Assembly: GCA_965203325.1 (NCBI GenBank)
Contig: OZ241875.1
Span: 3,328,001-3,392,000 of the forward strand
Reading direction: 5' to 3'
Length of the DNA stretch: 64,000 nt
Source of the DNA: a bacterium
GTDB lineage: Bacteria > UBA8248
Made by a program: the position numbers and the translations under genes. The notes beneath the pieces are model-generated. The model did no database searches. It was not told the origin of the DNA and was given only the letters and a program-made list of their open reading frames with translations. This document shows positions 1 to 60,907 of the stretch, piece by piece; the stretch's first letter is position 1, and each line of letters starts with the position of its first letter.

Positions 1-272
1 ATCATGTAAACCATGCGGTAGACGGACTCGATGAGGGCGGCGTGTCCGGACGATAATGTGGCAGCGGGAGGCTCGTCGAGCCGCTCCTCGGCCGCGGCGA
101 GGGCACCCGAACGGACGAGTTCGCCGACCGGAATGCCGTGCCGCGCCGCGGCTTTTTCTAACAGACGCCACTCCAAACCCGAGAAGCGAATGGAGTGCGG
201 CACTCGCGGGTCGCTCGGGTTTTCCGCTGGCTTGTTGCCCTTTCCGGACTTTTTCTGATCGTTTCGCGTCAT
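1..272 (-). CDS. Ribbon-helix-helix (MobC/CopG-like) DNA-binding protein, runs off the left edge
   Basis: Absent from the ORF track because there is no stop in the window. Manual translation from ATG 272 (GAGGAAG upstream): MTRNDQKKSGKGNKPAENPSDPRVPHSIRFSGLEWRLLEKAAARHGIPVGELVRSGALAAAEE..., an RHH strand-helix-helix pattern. Same position relative to DUF2493 as the 11757 gene. Confidence 0.65.
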   Translation of the reverse strand, partial: MTRNDQKKSGKGNKPAENPSDPRVPHSIRFSGLEWRLLEKAAARHGIPVGELVRSGALAAAEERLDEPPAATLSSGHAALIESVYRMVYM

Positions 273-1007
273 CTTTTTCGCTTCCTCAGGAGGGGATCCG
301 TCAACGAAACGGACCGCATCGACCGCGATTTCGGTTCCGGCACGGCTCGTTTCAGACGAAACCCCGGGCGTTTTTGGACCTTCGGCGCTCGATTCTACGC
401 CCCGCCTTCAGGGTTTTTCGGCCGCCCTCGAGCGGGTTCTCCGCGCAGGTGGCAACCCCGGCGTACCGCGAAAAGGCCGGTATCGGGAGCATTCAAACGC
501 ATTGCGCAGCGTAACACGTCGTGTTACGGGATGCCACCGATTGCAACCAGACTGGTATCTATGCGCGACGTGCGCAGCCATGCCCCGTCAGGGATGAGAA
601 TGGGCGTGTATGCTCTGAGCTTACACTCGTCCGCGATAAGCCTGTCGCCCCGTGTCGTTGATATGGGACGGGATAGCAGCCCGTTCGTCATATGCCGGAA
701 TCCAGCAGCCCGCTGCGTTCCGGTGTGAAATCCGAAGCGCCGAAGGGCGACTAACGGCGGATTCCTGGGAACGAACGACGGGGGAATTTGCGCCGGAGAG
801 AATGGCAAGCGGGAGCCGCCGCGGCGATTGAGCGGACAGAGCGGGGGGCAAGAGGATGTGAGGGTGCTGAACCTTGCGCCTGGATTCACAAGCGGCGGAC
901 GCACGGGGCGCTGCATCTTGCGCTTTTCATCACAAGCAGACGAACGACACGGGAAGCAACGAGCCGCGCCGCCGGGCGGCGACGACGCGGCTCGTCGAGC
1001 GTTCACG

Positions 1008-1958
1008 TCACGCTACTTTCTGGACGGGTATGCCGAGCGAGCGGGCCTTGTCGACGAGGTTGTCGGTGATGCCCGAGCCGGGGAACGCGACCACGCCCTT
1101 GGGGAGGAGGCTGAGCAGCTCGTCGTTGCGCCGGAAGGGAGCGGCCCGACCGTGGGCGTCCCAGTCGGGCTTGCAGACGATCTGGTGGACGCCGTTCCGC
1201 TCGGCCCAGCCGGCTGCTATCTTCTCGGCGCCGGGGCCGCCGCCGTGGACGAGGACGACGTCGGCGTACTTGGCTTTCAGCTTGTCGAGCTGGCCGATGA
1301 TTTTACCCGCGTCGGTGGCCTCCTTGCCGCCCGCGACGGCGACGAGGGTTCCCTGGGGGAGGTGGGCGGTGTTCTCGCGGTCCTTTCTCGCCCGCTGGAA
1401 GTCGCGCGCCTCAATCACCGCCGACGTGAGCTTGCCGGTCTGCGAGACGTGCGATCCTCGTCGGGGCCGCCATACCTCGCCGGTCTCGACGCGGTAGGCC
1501 TCGGCGGCCATGTCGCGCAGCCCCTCGAAGGCGTCGCGACGGGCGGTGAGATTCCCGGCCCGGTCGGTGGCGAGTTCGAGTTCGCGGGACCTGATCTCGG
1601 AGCCGTCCTGCTCGCGCTGGAGTTCACGGATGCCGGGGATGAGTTTGTCGGCGGCGCGGTCGAGCCGCTGTGTCTGGGCGTCGAGGGTGTTGACGAAGCC
1701 CCACAGGAGACTCGCCCGCTCATCCGCCAGCTGCGTTCCGTCGGGCGCGGCCTCGGCGAGTGCGCCGAAGGCCTTGAGGACGGCGGCGGTGGACTCCGCT
1801 TCGCCCCACACGGGCCGGTTGTCGAACTCGTCCGGGCCCGGGGTCGCGCCGAACAGCTGGGCCTGCTCGCAGACCATGGCGGTGAAGGATTCGTTCTGCG
1901 CTTCGATGTTGTCGACCTCGTGCATGATCATCTCCTTGTGTGTCTCGGTGGCGGTCAT
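1008..1958 (-). CDS. DUF2493 (SLOG/YspA-like) domain protein
   Basis: C-terminal VAVAGGKE...VLVHGGGPGAEKIAAGWAERNGV...AAPFRRNDELL...VAFPGSGIT motif set; AAGGAG RBS. Confidence 0.85.
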   Translation of the reverse strand: MTATETHKEMIMHEVDNIEAQNESFTAMVCEQAQLFGATPGPDEFDNRPVWGEAESTAAVLKAFGALAEAAPDGTQLADERASLLWGFVNTLDAQTQRLDRAADKLIPGIRELQREQDGSEIRSRELELATDRAGNLTARRDAFEGLRDMAAEAYRVETGEVWRPRRGSHVSQTGKLTSAVIEARDFQRARKDRENTAHLPQGTLVAVAGGKEATDAGKIIGQLDKLKAKYADVVLVHGGGPGAEKIAAGWAERNGVHQIVCKPDWDAHGRAAPFRRNDELLSLLPKGVVAFPGSGITDNLVDKARSLGIPVQKVA

Positions 1959-1979
1959 CGTTCACTCCTTTCGTTGTCC

Positions 1980-2354
1980 TCAGGCGAGGGGATGGTTGAA
2001 TTCGGGAAGAGCGTAGCCACGCTCGTTGCGCCCCACTTCTTTCGGCATCCCGTCGAGATACCCGGCGGCCCACTCGGCGGCGCGCGCGAGTACGTCGCCG
2101 TGGCACGGGAGGGGATGGCAGTGGCAGCCGAGCTCGCAGCCTTGAAGGTCGGCGAGTTCGTGGAGGTCCTGCTCCTCGCGCCGGATTTTTTCCCACAGCC
2201 ATCGCCGGTATTTCTCGATCACCTCGGCGCGCTCGCCGTCCTTGCCGATCCGGAAGGGGTTTCCCCACTTCGTCGCGCGGTCGATCCTGACCAGCAAGCC
2301 GCCTCCGAATGGGGGCGCAACGTAGTCGTTCAGGTTCACCACGGTGGTTTCCAT
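1980..2354 (-). CDS. DUF4326 domain protein
   Basis: RIDRxTKWGNPF...LGCHCHPLPCHGDVL signature; AAGGAG RBS. Confidence 0.9.
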   Translation of the reverse strand: METTVVNLNDYVAPPFGGGLLVRIDRATKWGNPFRIGKDGERAEVIEKYRRWLWEKIRREEQDLHELADLQGCELGCHCHPLPCHGDVLARAAEWAAGYLDGMPKEVGRNERGYALPEFNHPLA

Positions 2355-2390
2355 GCCTTTCTCCTTCGTAGAGAGTTAACGGATGCGCTT

Positions 2391-2619
2391 CTTAGCGCCC
2401 CATTTTCAGCACGTAAGGGCATCGGGCGGTGTTACCGATGCCCGTAGGCGAGCGAATCAAGGGCTTGTCATTTTCCGGGGGGTTCCCGAAAAACACGCCT
2501 CATAGAGCGGCGCTCCTGTCTTTCGCCGCTCGGCGTTTTTTGGGGGGCACCGGCAAATGATGGCCGCTCGCGGCCACCCTTTATTCGCTCGGCGTTCGTG
2601 CTAAAATGAGGACGCTAAG
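2391..2619 (+). promoter_or_regulatory. Long imperfect stem-loop, candidate Frpo/ssi-type single-stranded-DNA promoter
   Basis: Outer arms CTTAGCGCCCCATTTTCAGCACG and CGTGCTAAAATGAGGACGCTAAG with nested inner stems; TGcTAAAAT -10 on the distal arm. Confidence 0.6.
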
Positions 2620-2945
2620 AGAGAGAGGGTAGTACCGCCACCGGGACACAAGAGCCTTTGGTGTTTCACGATGAAGGCGAAGCTCATCGGGAAACAGTCT
2701 CTCATGCTGCGGAAAGGGTCATTTCGGGCCGTCTTTTTCCGGCCCGAAATTCCCGCAGCGGGGGGTGGACCGAGCCACTGTCTGGAATTATGGAATGATT
2801 ACAGGAGCATGCCGATCTTCCGGGAACACGGTTCATCGTTCGCGGAACCGGAGATCTTCTAGGTGTTCCTGGTAGACGAGAGGGCCGGTGGGGCGGGAAA
2901 GGCGCGGGCGCGGCGCTTCGGCGGCAGACTTTCTCTGAATAACGA

Positions 2946-2985
2946 GCAAAAGAAAAGGCCGACGCGCGAGGCGCCGGCCCTTCAA
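2946..2985 (-). terminator. Intrinsic terminator after ssb
   Basis: GC hairpin followed by a T-tract on the minus strand; conserved in copy B. Confidence 0.6.
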
Positions 2986-2989
2986 GCAC

Positions 2990-3436
2990 TCAAAATGGAA
3001 TTTCTTCCCCCACAACGCCAGCCGCCACAGCCGCCGTCTCGGGGTGCGCGCCGTTGCCGTTGCCATTTCCGTTCCCGTTCACCTTGTCGAGGAACTGCAC
3101 GCGTCCCCCCGGCGCGATGAGGATCTCGGTCGAGAACCGATCCGAATCCTCGTCATCCTTCTTCCAGCGGCGGGTCTGGAGCTTGCCGGCCACGTAGACC
3201 AGGCGGCCCTTCTTCGCGTGCTTTTCGAACATATCGACCAGGCCGGGCTGGAAGGTCACGACCCGGTGCCACTCGGTCTTGTCCACCCGCTCGCCGGACT
3301 GCTTGTCGATGTAGCCCTCATCCGTCGCGATGGACAGGTTGGCGACGCGACCTCCGCTGGTGAGGTGGTTGACGGTGACGTCGGCGCCGAGACGCCCGAT
3401 CAGTTCCGCTCTGTTGAGTCCGAATGCCATTTTCAT
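2990..3436 (-). CDS. ssb: Single-stranded DNA-binding protein
   Basis: LNRAELIGRLGAD...KTEWHRVV...LVYVAGKLQTRRW; C-terminal EEIPF. Confidence 0.97.
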   Translation of the reverse strand: MKMAFGLNRAELIGRLGADVTVNHLTSGGRVANLSIATDEGYIDKQSGERVDKTEWHRVVTFQPGLVDMFEKHAKKGRLVYVAGKLQTRRWKKDDEDSDRFSTEILIAPGGRVQFLDKVNGNGNGNGNGAHPETAAVAAGVVGEEIPF

Positions 3437-3509
3437 ACTCCTTCAGGTTGTGGTGTGGATGATGAAGTTGGGCAGTCTGAAATCCTCTCTCCCGACCCCC
3501 CGGTTCGTC

Positions 3510-3641
3510 CTAGATGCTGCAGAACTCCACTTCGCCCCCCGCCTCGTCGCGAATCTTGCGGATCGTGTACGCGTCGAGTCCGAGTTCTGCGAGCAGTTCG
3601 TCCGTGGTGGGAACATCGACGTCAAAGTCGTTCTCGTACAT
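3510..3641 (-). CDS. 43-aa acidic small protein (MYENDFDVDVPTTDELLAELGLDAYTIRKIRDEAGGEVEFCSI)
   Basis: AGGAGG RBS 7 nt before ATG; co-oriented and directly upstream of ssb; below the ORF-track cutoff. Confidence 0.55.
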   Translation of the reverse strand: MYENDFDVDVPTTDELLAELGLDAYTIRKIRDEAGGEVEFCSI

Positions 3642-4347
3642 GGCCAGGCCTCCTATCGGGGTTGTCGCCGGCGGCGGGAGCTGGAGACTGTCTCCCTCTC
3701 CCCTGCCGGGCCTTTGCCCGGCTCCCCGCTTCGCTCTTCCTCTGCGAGGGGGGTCCGCAACCGGTGTCGGAACTTTCGTGGGCCGTGAACGGCCTCCGTC
3801 CCGACCGGGTAGTCTCGGAAACAGACGGGAGCGGGAACCAGGCGAGCGCGCCCCTGGTCCGGGGTTCGGATGGATGAGGAGCGGAGAAATGGAAGCGCAT
3901 CGGGAGGGACGGGGTTCGGGGCGGCGACTATCCTGTCACCGCCGGTGAGGTTCATCGTCGGTGATCCCGCGCCGTGGACCGGGGTGTCGGCGTTGATGCT
4001 GCCGGGGCAGGCTGCCGGGTTAGCTCCGCGCTGCCTAGCGGGTCGGGATTGTGTTCGGCGCATTCGTCACCGATGGCGAGACTGCTCTGCCGGGTTGCTC
4101 CGCCCCGTGTGGTCGTATCCGGTCTCGCGACCGGGCTCCCTGCCTGCCGTCTTGCGCAGCGCGCCCGGGTCCGGTTGGCGGCACAGCGGGGTGGCCTTCC
4201 CCCCGCCCCCGGCGGGAAGGGAGCCGGACGGCTTCTGGACGGCGATACGTATCCGCTGACGAGCGGCGGAGCAGAGGCCGGTTGGTGCCCCCCCGCCAGA
4301 CGTATACGGGCCGGCTGCACGTGCAGGCGGCGAGCCGGTGCAAGCAC

Positions 4348-5157
4348 CTACCAGCTGGTGAACCTGGCCATAGGCGACGCGTCTTCGATGATTTCCACTT
4401 CCTCGCGGGAAAGCTTCTCGAAGGCGAGGCACATGGCGACCTCCTCCCAGGAGTCCCAGGGTCCGTGCTCCTCGCCCGTGGCGAGTTCGACCACGGTGTA
4501 GCGCGGCGGGTAGAGGGGCAATCCCTTGTGCTCGCCCGAGGAGTGCCAGGAGCGCCGCGCACACGGTTCGCACCGGGCGGCAAGGCCCGCCGGCCGGCCA
4601 CAGTCCACGCAGAGCCACCGTGCGCGCCTTTTTGCGTAGCGCGCCCGGCTCGCGGCGTTCTTCTTTGGAGCGCGTCCCTCCCCGAGCGCGGCGCACGGGC
4701 CGCATTGCGCGGCGACGGCGAACGTCGGCCTCCCGCAGCGGCCGCACAGGCCTTTCGCTCTCCTGGCGGCGTAGAGCTTTTGCTCTTCAGCGCGCCTCAC
4801 CTCCCGGCAGGTCTCGCACACGGCGCCGCCCTCTACCGGGGGACGCTCTCCGCAGGCCGTGCAGAGGCCGGCCGCCTTGCGTTCGCGCCTTCGCCTCTTG
4901 CTCCTCTCCCGCGCCATGCGGCGTCGTCCCTCGGGGTTCTTCCCCCCGTAGGGGTCCCCGGCGGCCTTGCCTCTCGCGTAGCGGGCGCGCTCGGCGGCCC
5001 GCCCCCTCTCGAGGCAGGGTTCGCACATGCTGCGCCCGGGCGCGGGAGGATGTTTTCCGCACTTGGGGCACAGGCCCATCGCTCGGCGTTCGGCGGCGCG
5101 CCGGCGGTGGCGTTCGCGCTCTTTCTTTCGTCCCTCCTCGGGGTCCTTGTACGGCAT
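4348..5157 (-). CDS. Basic protein with four CxxC...CxxC zinc-finger-like repeats
   Basis: GLCPKCG..CEPC, GLCTACG..CETC, GLCGRCG..CGPC, WLCVDCG..CEPC separated by Arg-rich helices; GGAGGGGGAG RBS. Confidence 0.75.
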   Translation of the reverse strand: MPYKDPEEGRKKERERHRRRAAERRAMGLCPKCGKHPPAPGRSMCEPCLERGRAAERARYARGKAAGDPYGGKNPEGRRRMARERSKRRRRERKAAGLCTACGERPPVEGGAVCETCREVRRAEEQKLYAARRAKGLCGRCGRPTFAVAAQCGPCAALGEGRAPKKNAASRARYAKRRARWLCVDCGRPAGLAARCEPCARRSWHSSGEHKGLPLYPPRYTVVELATGEEHGPWDSWEEVAMCLAFEKLSREEVEIIEDASPMARFTSW

Positions 5158-5171
5158 CCGTCTCCCCCTCC

Positions 5172-5486
5172 TCAGCGCCGGCTGCTTTGGGCAAAAAATC
5201 CCGTGGCGTACGCCCCCCAGTATTGAACCCCGCTGTCCCTGGTGCGCAGGCCCGTGCAGACGATGATCTCGTCCCGCGCGGGCCGCATCTCCCGGACGGC
5301 TTTCCGGGTGGCCGTCGCTCTCTTCATCCTGCGCCCGCTCCCGGTCTTCGCTTCCGCAGCGGGAATGGGGCGGATATCGCCGTCCATCGTCGACTTGAAC
5401 CGTTCCACGGCGTATCGCTCGTCTTCGAGTCCTTGGCCGAAGGTGTGGGTGAGGAAGGTGTTCGACTCTCGCATGGTCGTCCGCAT
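5172..5486 (-). CDS. Hypothetical protein
   Basis: AAGGAGG RBS; operonic with the 4348-5157 gene. Confidence 0.55.
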   Translation of the reverse strand: MRTTMRESNTFLTHTFGQGLEDERYAVERFKSTMDGDIRPIPAAEAKTGSGRRMKRATATRKAVREMRPARDEIIVCTGLRTRDSGVQYWGAYATGFFAQSSRR

Positions 5487-5877
5487 CGCGCGCCTCCTTG
5501 CTGTGGGTGGTCGGGAAGGCGGAGAACGTCCTCTCCCGGACGCCCTTCCGCCGCCCCCTCCCGGCCCGGCTCTACCTCTCGCCGGCGCGTGGCCGGGGGG
5601 AGGTGCGCGATGAACGCCCCGGCGCTCGGGGCCGGGCGAGGCGCGCTGCGGAAAAATTTTTTGTCATATCCCTGCGCAGCCGGTCGCATGCGAGACCGCG
5701 TATGGCGCGCGGGCGTTGGAAACTGGATATAGAAAACTCTTGCAAACGAGATGTTTATGCTTTATTCCCGTTCTGGATGCAGGCGATGCGAGCCTATGCT
5801 CGCATGACGTCGTAGGCTCAGGGCGTAAGGTTCGAACGCGAAGGAGGGATGCGGATGAACGGGAACGGGGGAACTGC

Positions 5878-5945
5878 CTGAGGACGCCGGGCTTGCGTCC
5901 GATGCCGTCGGAGAGTGGACCGAAGATGATCTGCCCGAGGCCGGA
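5878..5945 (-). pseudogene. Fragment of a Bcr/CflA-type MFS transporter
   Basis: Isolated GLGQIIFGPLSDGIGRKP (MFS motif A) with no surrounding gene. Confidence 0.5.
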
Positions 5946-5972
5946 ACGGCGCCACGGGCAAATACTTTGTAA

Positions 5973-6156
5973 GGGGGGCTGTTGAAAAAGCCCGCACAGT
6001 GCCCTGCAAGTAGAGGGTTTGTAGGGACAGGCCCCCGTGCCTGTCCCTGCGAAGCGCAACCACGAGGATGGACATATCCGATACGGGCGGCCACAGGGGG
6101 TCGCCCTTACGAGTGAATGCGGTTTTGGCCATCTTCCGGCGAATGCCGGAATGACG
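5973..6156. repeat. MITE end plus REP cluster
   Basis: GGGCTGTTGAAAAAGCCC end; GTAGGGACAGG..CCTGTCCCTGC and TTCCGGCGAATGCCGGAATGACG palindromes. Confidence 0.6.
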
Positions 6157-6313
6157 AACGAAAACTTCTCGGCAAACGAGAGATTGTCCCGCAGGGGCCG
6201 CATACATGCGTACATGGACGCCCCCACCGATTCATGTTTAGATACGGATACGTAGATAACCAGCGAGAACGCGAAGCAGGAACAGCCTGATTGAGTCAAG
6301 AGAAGGGGGAACA

Positions 6314-7231
6314 ATGGAATTGAAAGCGAGACGAAGGTTTGTGGGAATGTATAGAAATTATTTTGTGAGGGAGGACAAAAAAAGTCTATCTATACGGTCC
6401 ATAAAATACCTCGCCTTGTGTTTTGCTTTGTTATTTCCATTGAATGCTTTTTCAGTGGGAGATCTTCTTGGTTGCAATAGTAGTGATACACTGGAAAGAT
6501 ATAATAAATTACATAAGCTGATAAAAAATGATTCAAATATTGCCCTTGTGTATAATTTAGCTATCACTTCTTTGTGTCTTGGAAAAACAAATGAGGGAAT
6601 GTCTCATCTTCAAAGGGCTTCGGATTCAGGCCATATTGTAGCTACTTATTTATTGGGTCTTTATTATAAAAAAAATCACACTTTTGATTCTGCGGAAAGT
6701 GTTGAAGGTATAGAAAATCTAAATAATGCTATTCATTACTATACTAAAGCGGCTCAAATAATTGAATCTTTAACTAATTACCCCGAAGGGGCAACAGAAG
6801 ATATGATGTATATTGAATCCACAGTTTATACTAGCTACTATGTGTTTAGAAATTTACCTGATCTTTATTTTAAAGGATATTCTTTTGCAATTAGAGATAT
6901 TGTGAATGGTAGTACAAGAGTTTCTTATACTGATACTTTAGATGTTTTAAATAATATGCGTACAACAGCTATTATGTGTGTAGAAAGGCCTTCTCTTTCT
7001 GTTTGGAAAAGTAAAAGAGATATAATTTATCAAGCTCAGCAAATTAAATGTGAAGCTTTACTACGTTTTGCAGAAGCTGTTTATCCTTTGGAGCAACAAA
7101 GACTACAGATAGCTCAGAACTGTGCAATTCCTCCCAGCAAATGTTCTGAACATAAGGCAATAGTCGGTCAAATTGGTCAGTTGGTTGGGAATATGTTTAA
7201 CCAAATAAGGTCAGCTCCTAAAATAAATTAG
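6314..7231 (+). CDS. Secreted Sel1-like repeat protein, very AT-rich
   Basis: Hydrophobic signal segment; EGMSHLQRASDSGHIVATYLLGLYY and AIHYYTKAA Sel1-like helices; sharp GC drop. Confidence 0.75.
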   Translation: MELKARRRFVGMYRNYFVREDKKSLSIRSIKYLALCFALLFPLNAFSVGDLLGCNSSDTLERYNKLHKLIKNDSNIALVYNLAITSLCLGKTNEGMSHLQRASDSGHIVATYLLGLYYKKNHTFDSAESVEGIENLNNAIHYYTKAAQIIESLTNYPEGATEDMMYIESTVYTSYYVFRNLPDLYFKGYSFAIRDIVNGSTRVSYTDTLDVLNNMRTTAIMCVERPSLSVWKSKRDIIYQAQQIKCEALLRFAEAVYPLEQQRLQIAQNCAIPPSKCSEHKAIVGQIGQLVGNMFNQIRSAPKIN

Positions 7232-7246
7232 ACATTGATTTTTTAG

Positions 7247-7390
7247 GAGTTACAGTCACACCTGGTGTATGGCCGTAGTGAATCAAGCGGCACTCCTGCC
7301 CATTTCTCTTTTGCCCACTCCATCAATGAAATTCACATCGGCGACCACGTCCAGTTGACGGAAGCCGCGCAGGCGTCTTGCCCACCCGGA
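7247..7390 (-). mobile_element. IS256-family right-end remnant
   Basis: Minus strand encodes WARRLRGFRQLDVVADVNFIDGVGKREMGRSAA*, resembling IS256 transposase C-termini, followed by ATACACCAGGTGTGACTGTAACTC (IR-like). Confidence 0.55.
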
Positions 7391-7421
7391 TGAATACGTT
7401 GGTGCTGAGAAGATAACCCTC

Positions 7422-8921
7422 TCACCGCGCCTCGAAGAAGCGGCGCACGGCGTGGTCGGGACTGAACTTGCCCTCTATGGCGTCGCGCAGCCAGTCGGCC
7501 ACCATGAGGTAGAAATCGGGCAGGCGTCCGCCCATCGTGTGGGCCTCGTTCTCATATACCCAAAGCTCCCTGGGGCCGCCCAGGAGGTCGAAGAGCCGCT
7601 CGGCGTCCTCCAGCGGGCAGAGCTCGTCGAACTCGCCCATCGCCAGAAGCGTCGGACACTTGATGTCGCCCGCGATATGCTCGAGCGTCATCTGCTCCGC
7701 CATGGCGTCGAACTCGTCCTCGTCGTGGATGTTGGACATGTACTGGTAATTCGCGCGGTAGGCGGGTTTCCCGCCCTTGAAGATGGAGTCTTTCTGGAGA
7801 TACACGCCCATCGCGCCCACACAGGCTTTCAGTCGCTTATCGTGCGCCGCCACGCGCGGCCCCCAGTAGCTGCCCATGCTCCAGCCGTAGAGGCCAATCC
7901 GCTCGGCGTCCACCTCGGGGCGTGATTCGAGATAGTCGATGGCGGCGGAACCCGCTCGCTCGAAGTTGTCCAGCGTCACCCAGGTCTCGCGCGTGTTGCT
8001 CTCCCCCTGGCCGGGGCCGTCGATGCTGAGCGTGGCGAGGCCGCGCCGCCTGAAGTGGTTGTGGTAGGGATTGGGGAGAAACTCTTTGATGGTGTCCATC
8101 CCCGGCACGATGATGACGCAAGGCGCATTTTCCACCCCCGGCACCGTCTGCAAAATGCCCGGAATCGTCTTTCCGTTCTCGAAGGGAATTTCCACGCGCT
8201 CCACGGGCGCTTCGTCGAACAGATCGATGAACTTCTCGTAGCAGGCGATCATCCTGGCATACAGTTCGAGCTTTTGCGGCGTGTTCTTGTGGATGACGCC
8301 GCAGGCGGGGCCGTAATAGAGCGCTGCGCGGTGGTAGAACTCCGCCGCCGACTCAAGGTGGCCGGCGGCCTCGGCTTCTCTCGCGAGCGCTTCTTCCTGG
8401 GCGGCGGTGCGCGCCCACTCCTTGGGCACGGAGCCGGGCAACTTGATGCGCTCGGTCGTCCGCCGCACGTCGGCGGGCAGGAAGGCGGGGCACTCGACGT
8501 TCTGGCCCCGCTCGGCCACCACCTCGATTCCCTTGTCCTTGAGGAAAGTGGTGAGCCGCTCGTTCAGCCATTTTGGATACGGCGAGGCGAGCGCCACCTT
8601 TGCGATGCCCGTCCGCTCTTCGATCACCGCGATGATGTCCGCATCCATGCCCGGACGCACGAAGCTGCCGCCGGTGCAGCCGAAGCAGATGGCATCGAGA
8701 CTCGCGTGGCCCGTGAATTCCATCAGGAGGCGGAGAGCGGTGCCTGTGGTCATAACGGCTGCCGCCCCGGTCAATAGAAAAAATCGTCTGTATGCGCAGG
8801 CGGATTGTGGAGCTTGAGTCCTCCGGAGAATCGGAATATCATCGCCATGCTCTCTTGGGCGCAGACATGCAATGCCCTTTTCGTGATCAAGTTGTTGTGT
8901 TGCGATAGTGTTGACAATCAT
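7422..8921 (-). CDS. Chimeric ORF: maleate isomerase/Asp-Glu racemase fragment fused to an FrsA/DHPON-type alpha/beta hydrolase
   Basis: AICFGCTGGSF and VALASPY motifs, then PGMDTIKE, DGPGQGE, GWSMG nucleophile elbow; AT-rich unrelated 5' end. Confidence 0.7.
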   Translation of the reverse strand: MIVNTIATQQLDHEKGIACLRPREHGDDIPILRRTQAPQSACAYRRFFLLTGAAAVMTTGTALRLLMEFTGHASLDAICFGCTGGSFVRPGMDADIIAVIEERTGIAKVALASPYPKWLNERLTTFLKDKGIEVVAERGQNVECPAFLPADVRRTTERIKLPGSVPKEWARTAAQEEALAREAEAAGHLESAAEFYHRAALYYGPACGVIHKNTPQKLELYARMIACYEKFIDLFDEAPVERVEIPFENGKTIPGILQTVPGVENAPCVIIVPGMDTIKEFLPNPYHNHFRRRGLATLSIDGPGQGESNTRETWVTLDNFERAGSAAIDYLESRPEVDAERIGLYGWSMGSYWGPRVAAHDKRLKACVGAMGVYLQKDSIFKGGKPAYRANYQYMSNIHDEDEFDAMAEQMTLEHIAGDIKCPTLLAMGEFDELCPLEDAERLFDLLGGPRELWVYENEAHTMGGRLPDFYLMVADWLRDAIEGKFSPDHAVRRFFEAR

Positions 8922-8994
8922 TATTTAATGAATTCCTTTATCAGATAAAACAAAAATTATCAGTAATTTATAAGCCTATCAAATTTGTGAATAC

Positions 8995-9243
8995 ATGTTC
9001 GAGAAGCACGCGAAGAAGGGACGCCTGGTCTACGTGGCCGGCAAGCTGCAGACCCGCCGCTGGAAGAAGGACGAGGAGGACTCGGATCGGTTCTCGACCG
9101 AGATCCTCATCGCCCCGGGCGGGCGCATTCAGTTCCTGGACAAGGTGAACGGGAACGGCAATGGCAACGGTAACGGCAACGGCGCGCACGCCGAGACGAC
9201 GGCGGTGGCGGCAGGCGTAGTCGGGGAAGAGATCCCGTTCTAG
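8995..9243 (+). pseudogene. ssb: 5'-truncated ssb
   Basis: C-terminal 82 aa nearly identical to the 2990-3436 product, with one extra GN unit; N-terminal half replaced by AT-rich DNA. Confidence 0.85.
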
Positions 9244-9249
9244 GCTCAC

Positions 9250-9287
9250 AAGGGGTCGGCGCCTCGCGCGTCGACCCCTTTTTCTTT
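9250..9287 (+). terminator. Intrinsic terminator
   Basis: GGGGTCGGCGC...GCGTCGACCCC followed by TTTTTCTTT. Confidence 0.7.
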
Positions 9288-9582
9288 GCTCCTTATCCAG
9301 AGGAGGTCCGCCCTGTCGGCTCTCTCATCTACCAGGAACACCCGGTAAATCTCCGGTTCCGTGAACGATAAACCATGTTCCCGGAAGATCGGCATGCACC
9401 TGCAATCATCCCGTATTCAGGATAGTGGCTCGGTCCACCCCCCGCTGCGGGAATTTCGGGCCGGAAAAGACGGCCCGAAATGACCCTTTCCGCAGCATGA
9501 GAGATTGTTTCCCGATGAGCTTCGCCTTCATCGTGAAACACCAAAGGCTCTTGTGTCCCGGTGGCGGTACTACCCTCTCTCT

Positions 9583-9771
9583 CTTAGCGTCCTCATTCTA
9601 GCACGCACGGCGCGGGGTCAAGGGTGCTTTTGCAAAAAACGCAAAAGCATCTTTTTTCAGAAAAAATCGGTGAAGCGTGGATTTTTTCCGCTGCGCGCCC
9701 TCCGGGTGAAAAAAGACGGAAAACCGCCCCTGACGCCCACGCCTAGCACGTGCTGAAAATGGGGCGCTAAG
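9583..9771 (-). promoter_or_regulatory. Second long stem-loop, candidate ssDNA promoter
   Basis: Same outer arms as 2391-2619 with a different interior; minus strand has TTGACC-N15-TAGAAT on the distal arm. Confidence 0.6.
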
Positions 9772-9807
9772 AAGCGCATCCGTTAACTCTCTGGAAAGGA
9801 GAAAGGC

Positions 9808-10182
9808 ATGGAAACCACCGTGGTGAACCTGAACGACTATGTTGCTCCCCCGTTCGGCGGCGGCTTGCTGGTCAGGATCGACCGCAGGACGAAGTGGGGA
9901 AACCCCTTCCGGGTCGGCCAGGACGGCTCCCGCAGCGAGGTCATCGAGAAATACCGGCGATGGCTCTGGGAAAGAATCCGGCGTCAGGAGCAGGACCTCT
10001 ACGAACTCGCCGACCTGCAAGGCTGCGAACTCGGCTGCCACTGCCATCCCCTCCCGTGCCACGGCGACGTACTCGCACGCGCCGCCGAGTGGGCCGCCAG
10101 CTATCTCGACCAGATGCCGAAAGAAGTGGGGCGCAACGAGCGTGGCTACGCTCTTCCCGAATTCAACCATCCCCTCGCCTGA
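9808..10182 (+). CDS. DUF4326 domain protein (paralogue)
   Basis: Same motifs as 1980-2354. Confidence 0.9.
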   Translation: METTVVNLNDYVAPPFGGGLLVRIDRRTKWGNPFRVGQDGSRSEVIEKYRRWLWERIRRQEQDLYELADLQGCELGCHCHPLPCHGDVLARAAEWAASYLDQMPKEVGRNERGYALPEFNHPLA

Positions 10183-10203
10183 GGACAACGAAAGGAGTGA
10201 ACG

Positions 10204-11163
10204 ATGACTGCCACCGCAATTCACGACCACAAGGAGATGATCATGCACGAGCACGCAGAGCACGAAGCGCAGAACGAAACCTTCACTGCCATGGTATGCG
10301 AACAGGCCGCCCTGTTCGGCGCCACCCCCGGCCCCGACGAGTTCGACAACCGGCCCGTCTGGGGCGAGGCCGAGGCAACCGCCGCCGTCCTCAAGGCATT
10401 CCACCTGCTCGCCGAGGCAACGCCCGACGGAACCCAACTGGCCGATGAGCGAAGAAACCTCCTGTGGGGCTTCGTCAACACCCTCGACGCCCAGACACAG
10501 CGGCTCGACCGCGCCGCCGACAAGCTCATCCCCGGCATCCGTGAACTGCAGCGCGAGCAGGACGGCTCCGAGATCAGGTCGCGCGAGCTCGAACTCGCGA
10601 CCGACCGGGCCGAGAACCTCACCGCCCGCCGCGACGCCTTCGAGGTGCTGCGCGACACGGCCGCCGAGGCCTACCGCGTCGAGACCGGCGAGGTCTGGCG
10701 GCCACGGCGAGGATCACACGTCTCGCAGACCGGCAAGCTCACGTCGGCGGTGATCGAGGCGCGTGACTTCCAGCGCGCGAAAAAGGACCGCGAGAACACG
10801 GCCCACCTCCCCCAGGGAACGCTCGTCGCCGTCGCGGGAGGCAAGGAAGCCACCGACGCGGGAAAAATCATCGGCCAGCTCGACAAGCTGAAAGCCAAGT
10901 ACGCCGACGTCGTCCTCGTCCACGGCGGCGGCCCCGGTGCGGAGAAGGTTGCAGCCGGCTGGGCCGAACGGAACGGCGTCCACCAGATCGTCTGCAAGCC
11001 CGACTGGGACGCCCACGGCCGGGCCGCTCCTTTCCGGCGCAACGACGAGCTGCTCTCCCTCCTCCCCAAGGGCGTGATCGCGTTCCCCGGCTCGGGCATC
11101 ACCGACAACCTCGTCGACAAGGCTCGAAGCCTCGGCATCCCTGTACAACGCGTGGCCGCCTGA
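10204..11163 (+). CDS. DUF2493 (SLOG/YspA-like) protein (paralogue)
   Basis: Same motifs as 1008-1958. Confidence 0.85.
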   Translation: MTATAIHDHKEMIMHEHAEHEAQNETFTAMVCEQAALFGATPGPDEFDNRPVWGEAEATAAVLKAFHLLAEATPDGTQLADERRNLLWGFVNTLDAQTQRLDRAADKLIPGIRELQREQDGSEIRSRELELATDRAENLTARRDAFEVLRDTAAEAYRVETGEVWRPRRGSHVSQTGKLTSAVIEARDFQRAKKDRENTAHLPQGTLVAVAGGKEATDAGKIIGQLDKLKAKYADVVLVHGGGPGAEKVAAGWAERNGVHQIVCKPDWDAHGRAAPFRRNDELLSLLPKGVIAFPGSGITDNLVDKARSLGIPVQRVAA

Positions 11164-11481
11164 TGTGAACACTCCTCGGGTCGCGTCGCCACCCCGGCGG
11201 CGCGGCCCGTTGCCTCTCTTCTCGATCACTCCACCGCTCCTCTCCTGGTTGCTCCGCTCACCTCCTCCCGCTCAATCGCCGCGGCGGCTCCCGCTCGCCA
11301 TTCTCTCCGGCGTAAATTCCCCCGTCGTTCGTTCCCACGAATTCGGCAATCTGACGCCCTTCGGCGCTTCGGGTTTCACACCGGACGCATCGCTGATGCA
11401 GGTGTCGCGTTGGTGCGACTGCCCGCGATATGCTGTGAAAATTCGCATCCCCGAGTGTTCCTGTCGTGCCGAGAAAAATAA

Positions 11482-11624
11482 TACCAATCTGGTAGCACTC
11501 GAACCTTTTGAAATCATTTCGCTTATAGAATCGCGTATGCTCATGTAATACGGGAAGTTCCTGCAAGATACCAGATTGGTAGTACACGGAGGCGCGCTGC
11601 GCTATGATGGCTACCATTTTGGTA
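11482..11624. promoter_or_regulatory. Three TACCA-N3-TGGTA palindromic operators (candidate oriT/RHH sites)
   Basis: TACCAATCTGGTA 11482, TACCAGATTGGTA 11569, TACCATTTTGGTA 11612; related AACCAGACTGGTA at 545. Confidence 0.6.
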
Positions 11625-11756
11625 GTTCATGAAACGGCATCAAGGGCATCGTTTTTGGGCCCGATGCGGGTGTGTTTGGTGCAGGAAATGAGTATTTTTG
11701 CGGTCGTTTTGCGACCGGTACGGATGAAAATCTTGTTGAGGGGAGCGGCGAAACGG

Positions 11757-12062
11757 ATGGTTCAGACGATACAGAAGAACATCAGGGTCACGCCCGAACA
11801 GTGGAAACGAATTGAAAATGAGGCCGAACAGCGCGAAATGTCGCCCAACCGAATGGTGATAGAGCTCGTGATGGAAGCCCTGGAGCGCCGCGAATGGCCC
11901 CAAACCGAAGCGGAAATCCACCTGCTTCGCTCCGCTATGTTCGTCGCACAGGCCATCATTCGCGACATGGAGAAGGACGGACGAGATGAAGAAATAGAAC
12001 AAATCAGCAGAAACATTTCCGAAGTCGCGCCGGAATTGCCGGGCAAATCGGCACAGAATTGA
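11757..12062 (+). CDS. Ribbon-helix-helix DNA-binding protein
   Basis: KNIRVTPEQWKRIENEAEQREMSPNRMVIELVMEAL; GAGGGGAG upstream of ATG 11757. Confidence 0.65.
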   Translation: MVQTIQKNIRVTPEQWKRIENEAEQREMSPNRMVIELVMEALERREWPQTEAEIHLLRSAMFVAQAIIRDMEKDGRDEEIEQISRNISEVAPELPGKSAQN

Positions 12063-12453: not shown

Positions 12454-13419
12454 ATGGGTATAGTCATCGACAGGAAAATTCCGAACAGACTTTATAAGTA
12501 TCGCGATTTTAGCAATCACACCTTGGACATGATCTTAAGCGATAACGTCTACTTCGCGGATCCGATCACTTTCAACGATCCCCTGGATACTAGGCCGTCA
12601 CTGGAGATCGATTTGGATGAAAGTCAACTAGAAGATATCGTGAGGAGACTTGTCGAACGAAGCACTAGGATCCAGATGGAAGCCGCGGCAGATACCATCG
12701 GGTACCATGGCCCCGATACGATGGCTCACATCAAGCGGCAGAGTCGGCGAAAGGCTGATCGGCTTATTGAGGAAATCGATTACCACGCCACGAATCCGTA
12801 TTACGATTCCGAAGATCGAAAACGTTTTCTTTTAGGTCACTACATTGAGAAGGAATTGCTTCGCCAATACGACAAGGGGGTCGTATCGCTTGCTGAGCGG
12901 GTTACGTGCCCCTTGATGTGGAGCCATTATGGCGATCAGCATCGTGGCGTTTGCATCGGGTATTCTGTTCCGCCTAGCGCAGACGATCTTTACAAGGTGA
13001 AGTACGGCGGTAGCAGGCTGATCGAGACGAGCAAGGTAGCCGCCATGCTAAATGGAGATGATACCGCCCGCGTCCAGGTTTACGAAGCTGTACTTTTGCG
13101 GAAAGCCCGTAGTTGGAGCTATGAGCGCGAGTGGCGGCTGATTGGTCGTCGTGGACTTCGAGACTCTCCGCTAGAGATGGAAGAGATTATTTTTGGCATG
13201 AGATGCACGCAGTCGGCAAAATATGCGGTGATGAAGGTAATGCAGAATAGGGAGCGGCCGGTAAAATACTACGAGATGCGTGAGGTTGCGGGAACGTTTC
13301 GTCTGAGAAAATTCGCTTTCAACAAAGATGACCAATTGTGTGTATATTTTCCGAGAAGGGCTCTCACTATAATTGAAGCATTTCAAGATTATACAACTTC
13401 ACCCAAGCAGAAACGTTAG
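12454..13419 (+). CDS. DUF2971 domain protein
   Basis: LYKYR, FNDPLD, LMWSHYGDQHRGVCIGY, K..WSYEREWR. Confidence 0.9.
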   Translation: MGIVIDRKIPNRLYKYRDFSNHTLDMILSDNVYFADPITFNDPLDTRPSLEIDLDESQLEDIVRRLVERSTRIQMEAAADTIGYHGPDTMAHIKRQSRRKADRLIEEIDYHATNPYYDSEDRKRFLLGHYIEKELLRQYDKGVVSLAERVTCPLMWSHYGDQHRGVCIGYSVPPSADDLYKVKYGGSRLIETSKVAAMLNGDDTARVQVYEAVLLRKARSWSYEREWRLIGRRGLRDSPLEMEEIIFGMRCTQSAKYAVMKVMQNRERPVKYYEMREVAGTFRLRKFAFNKDDQLCVYFPRRALTIIEAFQDYTTSPKQKR

Positions 13420-13634
13420 GCCCAGGAAACTAGGGTTTAGGCAGTAAAGGGTAACGGATTCACGTTAGCAAGAGTTTCAAGTGGTCGATCTCGTCCTGAT
13501 ATTGGATTTCAAGTCATATTTCATGTTTGTGGAATAGAAGTTCCGTATTACACATTGATTTATCTGTTAGTTTTTCGATGCACATCTCGGCACGTACTTT
13601 GCGGATCTCCTTCAGTTCGCGGACTGTTGGTCAA

Positions 13635-14096
13635 TCAACTTTTTGACGGTATATCCAAGGTGGTTTCAAATTCTCGGTCGTTCCCACGAATCCAATGTTC
13701 GAGCGCATCGGCTGTCCTATCCACTAAATCCCCTTGCAGCGCACATTCCCAAACCACTGCTACTCGCCAACCACTTTCCAGCAATTTCTTCCGCACATTT
13801 CGGTCACGCTCCATATTAGCACGGAACTTTGCTTGCCAGAATTCCGCTCGGGTAGCGGGATCGGTTGCTCGAGAGCAGCCGCTATGTCGATGCCAGAAAC
13901 AACCATGCACGAAACATACCGCGCGGAAACGATCGAAAGCCATATCTGGCGTGCCAGGAAGTTTGCGAACATGAAGTCGGTATCTGAGACCCCGTCCGTG
14001 AAGCGCACGGCGCAGAACAAGTTCCGGTTTCGTGTCCCGGCTACCGACGCGTGCCATTATGCGAGAACGCGTTGCTCGATCCACTATGTCGGACAT
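13635..14096 (-). CDS. vsr: Very-short-patch repair endonuclease
   Basis: RSRIMARVGSRDTKPE, LPGTPD, FVHGCFWH, VVWEC. Confidence 0.95.
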   Translation of the reverse strand: MSDIVDRATRSRIMARVGSRDTKPELVLRRALHGRGLRYRLHVRKLPGTPDMAFDRFRAVCFVHGCFWHRHSGCSRATDPATRAEFWQAKFRANMERDRNVRKKLLESGWRVAVVWECALQGDLVDRTADALEHWIRGNDREFETTLDIPSKS

Positions 14097-14205
14097 TGTC
14101 AGCCCTGTTCACATCGATGAGTTAGCTTGTGATAAATAAATTGTCCTTCGACCCTAAGTGCAGCCGAAACCGTTCAGGCTAGGCCAAGTCTGCTCACCCA
14201 TTGTC

Positions 14206-14952
14206 TCACTCTCTCCAATAAACCTCCGTTGCGAGGTACTCGTGGATTACAGACTTTACCGACACACTATCGCCCCAGTCTTCGGCCGTATACCGATAAA
14301 CACCATCTTGAACGATGACCCATGACCCAAACATATCTGCCTGACGTGGGTCGACCTGAAAGCGCATCCTCTGGAACATCCGAGTTCCGATCTCCGACCA
14401 TAGTCCTAATTCCGAATATGCGGTTTCAAATTCCTCATATTGCTCTTGGGAAAGGAGTTGTAGTGGAACGGCTATGACCGTTTCTGGTTTCTCTACCAGC
14501 CAGCGATCTAGATCATACGATGCGTGACAACGCGCGTTTTTAACTATCACCCTATTCACTCTCTCTGGTTCCGGCACGAAGGTAATTTCAGATTCACCGA
14601 ACAGTGTCTCGGTCTCTATCCTTGCTTCTTCTATTCGCGCGCGAAGTCCCTGCTGCCGCATGAACGTTTTGGCCATCCCTGCATTCTTCTGCTTTTGTGG
14701 ATCTGTCGACCCGGTCAGCACTGCACTCAAAAGCGCTGCCAAATACTCTTCGTCACGTGAAAAACTTGAATTGCATTCACGACACGCCGCTGTAGTCATT
14801 AACTCTTCTGGGTAGGGTTTCATCAAAAGGGACTTTGAAGGAATGTGTTCTTGCGTAGAATTCGTCTCATCTAGTTTTATTCCACAGTGTACGCAAGTGC
14901 GTTCTGGCCACCTTAGACGCTCGTCTACATAAGACTCTGTAAAGCGTTTCAC
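14206..14952 (-). CDS. HNH endonuclease
   Basis: CVHCG...TQEHIPSK...ACRECNSSF. Confidence 0.8.
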   Translation of the reverse strand: MKRFTESYVDERLRWPERTCVHCGIKLDETNSTQEHIPSKSLLMKPYPEELMTTAACRECNSSFSRDEEYLAALLSAVLTGSTDPQKQKNAGMAKTFMRQQGLRARIEEARIETETLFGESEITFVPEPERVNRVIVKNARCHASYDLDRWLVEKPETVIAVPLQLLSQEQYEEFETAYSELGLWSEIGTRMFQRMRFQVDPRQADMFGSWVIVQDGVYRYTAEDWGDSVSVKSVIHEYLATEVYWRE

Positions 14953-15059
14953 TCACTCCTCCATCTGGACACAGGAGATTTCAACGCCGTAAATTCACCA
15001 GAAGGCCAAGATTGATACGCTGCTGCACTTCGCTATCTTATGAGCATCCTGCAATACCG

Positions 15060-16139
15060 TCACTCATCCCGTACAAACCCGTGTTGAGCAAGGTGAGACG
15101 CTATCGAGCGGCCAATAACTTCGCCGAGCAATACTGGAACCGCGTTCCCAATCATTCGGCCGACCGCCTTGAACTGGACCCGTTTACCTTGCGAAACAAA
15201 TTGATAGTCACTTGGGAATGATTGCAAGATAGCGCCTTCCCGCAATGACAAGGCCCGATCCTGTTCCGGATGACCAAAGCGGCCGTTCCCAAATCCAAAA
15301 AACTGCGTTGTGATTGTGGGTGCCGGTTCGTCGAACTTCATTCTCCCATACACCGACCTATATCCTTTTCCCGTCTTGAGTCGGTGGCATGGCGCTACCA
15401 ACTCCTCGTCCCAATCAGCCCAGCTACCTCCCGGAACCGATGCCCTGATGCGCTTCAAGTTCATGGGTGACAAGCGGCTCGCTCTATGCAAGCCGTCAGT
15501 CTTATCCGTCTCTCCTGCTGCCAAAGGTGGGAGTTTTCCAATTACCTGCTCTACGGTTTGATAGTTTTCCGGGGAATAGGTCGGCTTCTCCAGCTTTATC
15601 CTGCCATGCAAAGACGCCATCACGACTAACCGGGACCGCCGTTGTGGAAGGCCGTATGCTGGAAGGAATGCGATACGGCGGCTAACACTGTATCCTGCCT
15701 TTCTCAACGACGCCAAGAAGCTTCGAAAGACTTTTCCGCCTTGATAGTCCATGAGGCGTGGTACATTTTCCATCGAAACTACATCTGGCTTGATTTCAGT
15801 AACCAATTCGCAGAATCGCCCAATCAGTCGCCAATTTGGGTCATCATTTTTCTGGTTGTACACCGAAAACGGCTGGCAAGGCGTGCATCCCACCAATATT
15901 TTCGGTTGATCGCGCTCGAATAACTCAACCACCTCGCTGGACGAAAGATCGTCGACATCCCGACAAATGAATTTTGTATTGTTATTATGCTCAAAGGGAT
16001 ATTGACATTCGGCATCAACATCCACTCCAGCTACAATCCGAAACCCAGCCCTCGCTAAACCATGCGTCAAGCCACCCGCTCCGCAAAACAGATCCACAAC
16101 CGAGCCAGGTGGCTGCGACTGTGCGTATTGTGTGTGCAT
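15060..16139 (-). CDS. dcm: DNA (cytosine-5) methyltransferase
   Basis: DLFCGAGG, GCTPCQPFS, MENV, QRRSR, LSLREGAILQSFP, IGNAVP. Confidence 0.97.
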   Translation of the reverse strand: MHTQYAQSQPPGSVVDLFCGAGGLTHGLARAGFRIVAGVDVDAECQYPFEHNNNTKFICRDVDDLSSSEVVELFERDQPKILVGCTPCQPFSVYNQKNDDPNWRLIGRFCELVTEIKPDVVSMENVPRLMDYQGGKVFRSFLASLRKAGYSVSRRIAFLPAYGLPQRRSRLVVMASLHGRIKLEKPTYSPENYQTVEQVIGKLPPLAAGETDKTDGLHRASRLSPMNLKRIRASVPGGSWADWDEELVAPCHRLKTGKGYRSVYGRMKFDEPAPTITTQFFGFGNGRFGHPEQDRALSLREGAILQSFPSDYQFVSQGKRVQFKAVGRMIGNAVPVLLGEVIGRSIASHLAQHGFVRDE

Positions 16140-16268
16140 CCTTTTCTGATTTTGGGCCTTAACCAATGTCGTCCTCTGTTAGTTCTAGGCATATCACCCT
16201 ACTCAATCGGTGTTCTCCTGCCTTTCCTGTATTGGCAACTCGCTCATATCTTGTTCTTCGTATTGTGC

Positions 16269-60829: not shown

Positions 60830-60907
60830 GGGAAAACGCCATTATCCACCGGCGGTGAGAGCGGGGCAAGGTGTGGGCGGTTTTGAGTAGAGAGGGATAG
60901 CGTCTTC

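Follow-up and report, generated by a model that had tools for sequence, protein, structure and literature searches.

The template strand upstream of the DUF4326 gene in a UBA8248 bacterium folds into a long branched hairpin, and we consider it quite probable that this hairpin serves integrated MOBF mobilisable elements as a single-stranded DNA (ssDNA) promoter, the interior of which occurs as two homologous, recombining alleles. Most likely, such a promoter would act only once the element enters a new cell in single-stranded form and folds, a mode of action known from E. coli plasmids. The analyzed stretch of DNA (the window) is 64,000 nt long and corresponds to positions 3,328,001-3,392,000 of the forward strand of contig OZ241875.1 (GCA_965203325.1).

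The cassette and its carrier elements

The genome is a single contig of 4.39 Mb (95%-complete). The window contains two copies of a cassette composed of ssb, the hairpin, DUF4326, and YAcAr/SLOG, inverted relative to each other. Their flanks are near-identical, as the preliminary description had reported (94% identity over 469 nt and 93% over 164 nt). Its picture of a simple two-copy duplication had to be abandoned because the chromosome holds 11 copies of the cassette. The outer hairpin arms were found at 11 genomic sites, all of them cassette copies, and nowhere else. Among same-genus genomes, the cassette count was 10 in two and 11 in one. The genes of the two window copies and their neighbors are listed below.

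1008..1958, minus strand: YAcAr/SLOG (DUF2493) gene, copy 1 (PF10686, E 2e-21)
1980..2354, minus strand: DUF4326 gene, copy 1, the first under the hairpin (PF14216, E 5e-25)
2990..3436, minus strand: ssb gene, copy 1, with a terminator-like stem at 2983-2953 (PF00436, E 8e-24)
8995..9243, plus strand: 5ʹ-truncated ssb remnant, copy 2 (by sequence)
9808..10182, plus strand: DUF4326 gene, copy 2 (PF14216, E 1e-24)
10204..11163, plus strand: YAcAr/SLOG gene, copy 2 (PF10686, E 8e-21)
11604..12062, plus strand: NikA-like ribbon-helix-helix gene beyond the copy 2 oriT, a putative relaxosome accessory (PF21983, E 8e-4, under the curated cut-off)
Genome 3324857-3327826: TrwC gene just left of the window

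A sister copy of the NikA-like gene matched PF21983 with E 9e-5, also under the cut-off.

The neighborhoods of the cassettes were surveyed with a rough gene call and a Pfam scan of 58 nearby proteins. For 11 cassettes, the genome has seven full-length genes of TrwC-type (MOBF) relaxases with tyrosine and HUH motifs (PF08751, E about 1e-80, plus helicase domains) and two genes of TrwB coupling proteins. Tyrosine integrases in tandem adjoin several cassette copies, and many such pairs occur genome-wide. Both the relaxase-helicase and the integrase of a MOBF integrative mobilisable element were thus present. Profiles of VirB4 (PF03135) and VirB10 (PF03743) gave no match in the 95%-complete genome, and their controls matched. 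Mating-pair formation genes, which a self-transmissible ICE would carry, appear to be absent from the genome as far as VirB4/VirB10 are concerned, and we infer that the carriers are integrated mobilisable elements requiring a helper mating pore. None of the relaxase families DUF3363, MOBP, and MOBQ matched in the genome, the DUF3363 control being likewise silent. Many of the cassette copies may be immobile, and ssb is truncated in window copy 2.

The cargo of the elements is variable and includes genes for restriction-modification, ankyrin and cadherin-like repeat proteins, and CRISPR genes. The genome bears an unusual burden of mobilisable elements with ankyrin, cadherin-like, and defence genes. 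The nearest relatives of YAcAr, at 87-93% identity, were found in records labelled Nitrospinota bacterium, Alphaproteobacteria bacterium, or bacterium, and sponge- or coral-metagenome runs contained about 1/4 to 1/3 of the sampled words.

Several other features were observed in and around the window. Left of it, a CRISPR array, cas6, and a cas4-cas1 fusion adjoin the TrwC gene of copy 1. The region past the copy 2 oriT (12454-16166) codes for defence-like cargo, namely a DUF2971 protein, a Vsr endonuclease, an HNH protein, and a C5 DNA methylase. The segment between the inverted copies (6314-8921) contains two coding regions: one is AT-rich and matches TPR weakly, and the other is an alpha/beta hydrolase ORF whose N-terminal part weakly matches arylmalonate decarboxylase-like proteins. 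At the junction with this segment, the ssb of copy 2 is interrupted. Upstream of ssb lies an Arg/Cys-rich ORF with repeated CxxC motifs (4348-5157, minus strand), which had no Pfam match above the cut-off and has a short relative at the other copies. Repeat units of about 280-330 nt at 39600-42500, within a long ORF (38184-43271, minus strand), are probably repeated protein domains, and short palindromic repeat pairs at 47471-47637, 51642-51795, and 60907-60987 are REP-like. Elsewhere in the genome, ARAGORN called tRNA-Ala(cgc) at 710499, 1257701, 2074666, 2559617, and 4235605, inside repeated cadherin-like/Calx-beta genes; these five calls are probably false positives.

The nic motif and the predicted transferred strand

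A nic motif, TGCGT(N3-4)GTGT followed by G or A, was found downstream of YAcAr on the template strand in 11/11 copies, 1618-1695 nt 5ʹ of the hairpin, and the opposite strand had none at the 11 cassette copies. The pattern matched only 31 times genome-wide on both strands. As given in Table 1 of PMC3074121, the nic of F is TGCGTGGGGTGT/GGT, and the F nic 12-mer was exact in 3 of the 11 copies. According to PMC4176350, a MOBF nic consists of an inverted repeat, after which comes the single strand that is cut. The motifs of the two window copies are as follows.

714..726, plus strand: MOBF-type nic motif TGCGTTCCGGTGT, copy 1, with the predicted cut at 726/727
11378..11389, minus strand: MOBF-type nic motif TGCGTCCGGTGT, copy 2, with a short inverted repeat before it

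We also collected 80 loci by YAcAr similarity, which are kin and overlap partly with the elements of the same-genus genome sample. The motif was on the template strand downstream of YAcAr in 77 of them, absent in two, and upstream only in one; one of the 80 additionally had a coding-strand match. An oriT upstream of trwC, with transfer of the coding strand, was considered and dropped because the nic motif was on the other side in all copies.

Because the nic motif is on the template strand of DUF4326 in 11/11 copies, the hairpin is predicted to lie within the leading region and on the strand that is transferred, which is what an Frpo-like ssDNA promoter requires. The predicted order on the transferred strand is nic, YAcAr, DUF4326, hairpin, and ssb, with all genes antisense on it, and a comparable gene layout is described for the leading regions of F and many plasmids (PMC11541004, PMC9849209). 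The leading-region position near oriT was found in 11/11 copies, with nic inferred from sequence, and the strand that would be transferred is both the template and the bearer of the hairpin in the 11 copies and, by the position of the motif, in 77/80 related loci. The Frpo geometry invoked in the preliminary description therefore passed a test of strand and position in every copy, with a putative nic 1.62-1.70 kb 5ʹ on the template strand.

Folding of the hairpins

Both window hairpins were folded as ssDNA. The region 2380-2630 (plus strand) gave -80.6 kcal/mol (z -9.25) and 9570-9785 (minus strand) gave -60.4 kcal/mol (z -8.74), and in each case 0/200 shuffles folded as well. The self-complementarity that had been noticed in both regions was thereby confirmed, and the stem-loop is long and stable, as in an Frpo-like promoter. 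The complements folded similarly (z -9.61 and z -6.31), so folding by itself does not choose the strand. The parts of the hairpins are listed below.

2390..2620, plus strand: long form of hairpin allele A, a putative ssDNA promoter of DUF4326-YAcAr (fold z -9.25)
2390..2414, plus strand: proximal (template) arm of the outer stem, with bulged C 2407 opposite the -12/-11 step
2417..2443, plus strand: side hairpin of allele A, extruded from the template arm and absent in B
2504..2533, plus strand: optional 30-nt apical hairpin module of allele A, cleanly absent in 16/31 aligned A sequences
2580..2607, plus strand: boxes of the distal (non-template) arm, TTTATT, 16 nt, TAAAAT, with TG at 2599-2600 (extended -10)
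9582..9772, minus strand: hairpin allele B, with TTGACC (9621-9616), 15 nt, TAGAAT (9600-9595) (fold z -8.74)

Identity between the window copies drops sharply from 2415 to about 2595. The hairpin of allele B has A/T-tract inner stems and two cGNAg triloops. When 5.6 kb of the plus strand (701-6300) was scanned for long stems bearing a -10 on their 3ʹ arm, the single match was the allele A hairpin, and the same scan on the complement of 701-6300 gave 0 matches.

For comparison, we assembled a set of 63 complete hairpins from 13 genomes, consisting of the 11 of this genome and 52 from 12 genomes of the same genus. Arm matches were found in 15 of the 22 genomes of the same-genus sample; those in two genomes (G004 and G015) were chance matches and one was at a contig end (G011). 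Outside the genus, 78 genomes gave four arm matches, none with a partner arm. The template strand was the lower-energy strand in 62/63 hairpins, by only about 5 kcal/mol.

Putative promoter boxes in the stem

The boxes TAAAAT (2602-2607, plus strand) and TAGAAT (9600-9595, minus strand), each with TG-C before it, lie on the arm away from DUF4326 and on its template strand, exactly where a good -10 had been proposed. All 63 hairpins agree with this location (TAAAAT in 62/63, TAGAAT in 1/63). The proximal arm reads CATTTTCA in 63/63 hairpins, with one C bulged at the -12/-11 step, and its gene-facing reading in dsDNA is TGAAAAT. This set was selected by the arms; in a recheck of 54 protein-found loci with enough upstream DNA, chosen without reference to the hairpin, the bulge was retained in 53.

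The -35 differs between the alleles. In allele A, the distal -35, TTTATT, is poor, and the template arm encodes a better one, TTGATT. In linear DNA this TTGATT is about 46 nt from the -10, and it comes into register only with the side hairpin looped out; in the fold, the 27-nt side hairpin aligns the template-side -35 (AATCAA, 2455-2460) with the -10. In allele B, a spacer of 15 nt separates TTGACC from the -10; on the template side, manual counting gave about 17 spacer bases, and the first T is in a G-T pair. Read toward the gene in dsDNA, B gives CTGACG, 19 nt, GAAAAT, which could be a weak ordinary promoter. In a plain sigma-70 scan, run on copy 1 only, neither allele passed, the 15-nt spacer of B being outside the scan range. 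On sequence, the -35 and -10 would thus be rebuilt in the stem and face the gene only when it is folded, and the distal -10 was present in 63/63 hairpins. The base of the stem is about 36 nt from the ribosome-binding site and start codon in every copy.

Covariation

Among 31 aligned A sequences, 99.5% of the cells were paired, and changes on both sides were found at 7 of 74 pairs; no shuffle out of 500 reached this count and slid alignments gave 0-2 pairs, with the limit that the sequences are related, that relatedness inflates such counts, and that the changes mostly represent few events. Two of the nine pairs in the side hairpin of A have two-sided changes, seen in 8 and 9 of the 31 sequences. 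The triloops of allele B vary at N only, with GGA + GCA in 25/28 and GGA + GTA in 3/28. Triloops of the cGNAg type are especially stable in DNA. Selection at the level of structure, which had been suggested beforehand, gained support from this check, in which compensatory changes were accompanied by whole side-hairpins that were gained or lost cleanly.

Two interior alleles and their exchange

The 63 hairpins carry 35 A and 28 B interiors, and both alleles were present in 8 of the 13 genomes, with no hybrid or third interior type among these hairpins. Mean identity was 93% within A and 96% within B. A pattern scan of metagenomes returned at least 117 loci; among the matches listed, three had the partner arm, all of allele B, the others were chance matches, and no third interior was seen.

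The interiors had been described as unrelated and completely replaced, and this proved overstated. For window A against window B, 234/1000 shuffles scored as high in local similarity (not significant), and only 4/1000 in global alignment (significant). Strictly inside the -35 stem, the short form of A, in which the 30-nt module is missing, against B was matched by 0/1000 shuffles locally and 1/1000 globally, and the long form by 96/1000 and 41/1000. Pieces common to A and B are TAGGCG..GGGCG..TCA.GGG, the apex GAAAAA..CACG(C/G)TTCA.CG.TTTTTT, and CACCCTT before the -35. Since short A aligns with B inside the -35 stem, the alleles are homologues. They are old and diverged, with a common apical core, and their divergence proceeded through substitutions and through whole arms being gained or lost. 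The long A form in the window conceals the relationship to B.

The trees of the flanks are of low resolution, and the short flanks are themselves mosaic; on these trees, the allele label changed 14 times on the left and 15 times on the right, below the shuffled mean of about 21, so some allele-flank signal persists. In one pair, the 120-nt flanks were 99% identical on both sides and the alleles were different. Monophyly of B was rejected on the joined flanks (AU p 0.0006, 62 rows). These comparisons support exchange of the alleles between near-identical flanks by recombination, for which ordinary homologous recombination among co-resident elements suffices. The earlier idea of swappable interiors holds in so far as two old, homologous alleles have been exchanged between backgrounds; an open set of unrelated interiors was not found.

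A second hairpin family in the same slot

Of the 80 YAcAr loci, 15 (L110, L145, L149-L151, L153, L155, L157, L158, L160-L164, and L166, at about 3730-3980) have a hairpin unrelated to A/B, which we call family II, directly before YAcAr on the template strand. Its carriers include records titled Alphaproteobacteria and Gammaproteobacteria and elements without DUF4326. The distal arm has TTGGCG or TTGCTG, 16 nt, and GACAAT, CACGAT, GAAGAT, GACGAT, or CATGAT, a pattern derived from these same 15 loci; it also matched once in the host genome, near 593279. Near the -10, the proximal arm has mismatches. Interiors vary strongly among the loci, and L164 has almost none; a fixed promoter stem with a loose interior is thus not unique to the A/B hairpins. 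The hexamer TAGCCT was tried as the -10 of family II and rejected because a wider fold gave better boxes further out.

Regions upstream of DUF2493 on alphaproteobacterial plasmids (L285-L290) were also folded, and all 6 fold, with z from -2.8 to -9.5. A pattern search for promoter boxes on the 3ʹ arm found none in these six regions (0/6). Most of their hairpins have the short GGCCG(A/G)A...GGAGGAC motif of family II, and they are possibly unrecognised ssDNA signals of leading regions.

The adjacent conserved block and RNA-library contigs

Next to the hairpin lies a second conserved feature.

2630..2880 (copy 2: 9330-9575), no strand assigned: second conserved structured block, from the hairpin to the ssb terminator (z -5.23)

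This block is about 90% conserved across copies, is present in the 64 loci collected, and may represent a small RNA or a further ssDNA signal. In RNA run X24, one contig (depth 73.6) covers 2642-2876. One RNA-library contig spans the hairpin, with a joint from 2414 to 2593, and counts against a start at the base of the stem; it could be explained by DNA carry-over or read-through. Contigs of RNA run X20 lie on YAcAr, DUF4326, and ssb, and they hardly cover, if at all, the hairpin interior and 2684-2891. The RNA contigs are unstranded and have no start sites, and their gaps carry no weight as evidence.

Comparison with known ssDNA promoters

In Wen et al. 2025 (PMC12672017), ssDNA promoters are divided into three classes, and start sites are confirmed by 5ʹ RACE. 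Class 2 is described there and in 10.1101/2025.04.03.647016 as ssp2/Frpo3 of F and pESBL, upstream of klcA/ardB and ardA. In the F hairpin upstream of the antirestriction gene, which we picked as class 2 by its position and to which the boxes were assigned in this analysis, the distal arm has CCC-TTGCAT-15 nt-TAAGAT, a mismatch lies opposite the -10, and template bases are looped out. The hairpins studied here resemble class 2 in being long, branched, and located, as predicted, on the transferred strand before a leading-region gene. In both, the distal arm has ACCC-TTG...15 nt...GC-TAA(G/A)AT-G(G/A), the -10 faces a mismatch, and the template side has additional bases. The layout of allele B is the layout of the F class-2 hairpin. 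In local alignment of the distal arm with ssp2, 2, 5, and 3 of 500 shuffles scored as high for B, B2, and short A, values that are borderline given ten comparisons, and 79/500 did so for long A. The weak similarity is mostly limited to a promoter core of about 45 nt (about 100 nt gapped for short A), and this likeness could be convergence on sigma-70 boxes. Unlike class 2, the present hairpins belong to integrated elements without their own mating pore, occur in 11 copies per chromosome and as two alleles, and have DUF4326 and YAcAr as predicted targets, not antirestriction genes.

With class 1, namely Frpo1/Frpo2 of F and ssi1-3 of ColIb-P9 (Masai and Arai 1997, as cited by PMC9849209 and PMC11541004), they share the -35/-10 rebuilt in a stem of the transferred strand, the position, the A/T-tract stems upstream of the -35, the MOBF nic in F, and a nearby ssb. 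In contrast, there is no sequence similarity (112-459/500 shuffles as high), and the length is 190-230 nt here vs about 330 nt. On these sequence grounds, the A/B hairpins are not members of the class-1 Frpo/ssi group. The comparison with Frpo thus stands for the geometry, and the closest characterised analogue is class 2 of F (ssp2/Frpo3) instead of Frpo1/2. A simpler box pattern applied to F found class 2 and missed class 1, and the F region taken as class 3 (L284 5300-5790) gave no clear hairpin.

Several of the Frpo' and Frpo* candidates of Samuel et al. 2024 (PMC11541004, Supplementary Table 2) have, by eye, CCCTTG...GCTA and T-tract/A-tract stems, but the elements that carry them are enterobacterial or from insect guts. 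None of the names DUF4326, YAcAr, and DUF2493 appears in the nine supplementary files of PMC11541004 that were searched. The EGeRS1 leaders of pLS20 plasmids (PMC8708921) are likewise repeated structured sequences upstream of establishment operons. According to that report, its authors reject an ssDNA promoter because the fold contains no promoter and because of which strand is nicked, the non-template strand being named. For the present elements, the two tests lead toward the reverse conclusion.

BLAST of both hairpins against 72,556 plasmids gave short matches only, with E 0.7 or worse. An Rfam search of window 1-12000 with E up to 1 gave nothing on the hairpins; a match of sX14 to the ssb terminator was dismissed as chance-level (26 bits vs a cut-off of 80). 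A literature search, with most of the subscription literature outside it, found nothing on these elements or on allelic interiors.

Proposed mechanism and alternative explanations

We propose the following course of events. The TrwC-type relaxase would nick the F-type nic, and the strand templating YAcAr, DUF4326, and ssb would be transferred 5ʹ first via a helper mating pore. Folding and covariation predict that, about 1.65 kb in, this strand forms a branched stem of 190-230 nt. Its distal arm would provide the non-template -35 and the extended -10, TG-C-TAAAAT, and its proximal arm would be the template, in which the bulged C at -12/-11 would spoil the gene-facing -10 of dsDNA and also pre-distort the melting site within the fold. 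Extra template-side bases, in an internal loop in B and in the extruded hairpin in A, would compensate the 15-16-nt spacer. RNA polymerase with sigma-70 would start near the base of the stem, at about G2614, templated at 2396-2397. Transcription of DUF4326-YAcAr would be transient, as second-strand synthesis removes the fold. The chief function of the interior, with its two diverged homologous alleles, would be that of a structural clamp containing A/T tracts, and comparison of the sequences indicates that recombination among many co-resident elements shifts the alleles between flanks.

A broader version, which we offer tentatively and regard as rather unlikely, is that these are split promoters assembled by the fold, with a distal -10, a -35 partly on the template arm, and spacing set by looped-out template. 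A and B would then be functionally distinct modules, differing in strength, host sigma range, or roadblock time, that are shuffled under balancing selection; in dsDNA, the boxes might also fire outward and yield a small RNA from the adjacent block of 250 nt, so that the direction of this switch would depend on strandedness. If this version were true, the common layout of A, B, family II, and F ssp2 would be a homology-free rule for finding ssDNA promoters.

It is improbable, in our judgment, that the hairpin is mainly a signal for second-strand initiation or a replication roadblock, with DUF4326 mRNA being secondary. RNA polymerase would then prime synthesis there, or the stem would delay the conversion of ssDNA to dsDNA. 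As described in 10.64898/2026.01.09.698686, transcripts from F ssp1/Frpo prime complementary-strand synthesis, and ssp2, the closest analogue, acts in cis as a roadblock that UvrD resolves; the elements also carry ssb, and pairing of the interior seems more constrained than its sequence. The constant distance from the stem base to the ribosome-binding site and start codon is, however, what an mRNA promoter predicts, and the family II hairpins too sit directly before a gene. This function is compatible with an ssDNA promoter, and both may hold together.

The remaining explanations do without an ssDNA promoter. An ordinary dsDNA promoter firing outward, from about 2614 toward ssb, would make a small RNA or an ssb antisense RNA, with the hairpin as an incidental feature or a cruciform. 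TG-C-TAAAAT is a usable extended -10 in that direction, and it faces the conserved structured block that is covered by the X24 contig. We nevertheless consider this very improbable, because it leaves unexplained why 190-230 nt upstream of the boxes are self-complementary and show compensatory changes, why the far arm has an invariant bulge, and why there is a strict tie to the nicked strand; moreover, the plus strand has no terminator-like site at the end of the block, and no Rfam match was found. We give least credence to a structure acting as RNA, in a 5ʹ leader or attenuator of a read-through transcript, or to a REP/MITE-like palindromic insertion. The gene-sense strand does fold well as RNA (z -9.1 for A and -7.1 for B), and an RNA-library contig spans the hairpin. 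Against read-through stand the terminator-like stem after ssb and the fact that the sole promoter-like site of the minus strand (2815-2787) is in a stretch varying between copies, and a function as RNA gives no reason for conserved -10/-35 boxes on the antisense strand. Unlike REP/MITE repeats, the arms are confined in the genome to the 11 cassette copies, and no Rfam family matched.

Implications

In the literature examined, characterised ssDNA promoters are those of enterobacterial IncF and IncI plasmids. If the mechanism of a folded ssDNA promoter holds, its range includes mobilisable elements integrated in the chromosomes of a marine, host-associated lineage. Two surveys, PMC11541004 and PMC12826799, find further ssDNA promoters mainly by BLAST to a handful of sequences, and the A/B sequences would escape such surveys. 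The elements provide a natural experiment, with one fixed stem, two interiors, optional side arms, and a second family in the same slot. The features that were kept are the distal -10, the bulge or mismatch at -12/-11, and a short distal spacer with looped-out template bases. NAD+-linked roles are predicted for the DUF4326 and YAcAr domains in PMC7824862, which would be consistent with cargo for early counter-defence. DUF4326 and the YAcAr SLOG protein may be regarded as candidate factors of early establishment or counter-defence.
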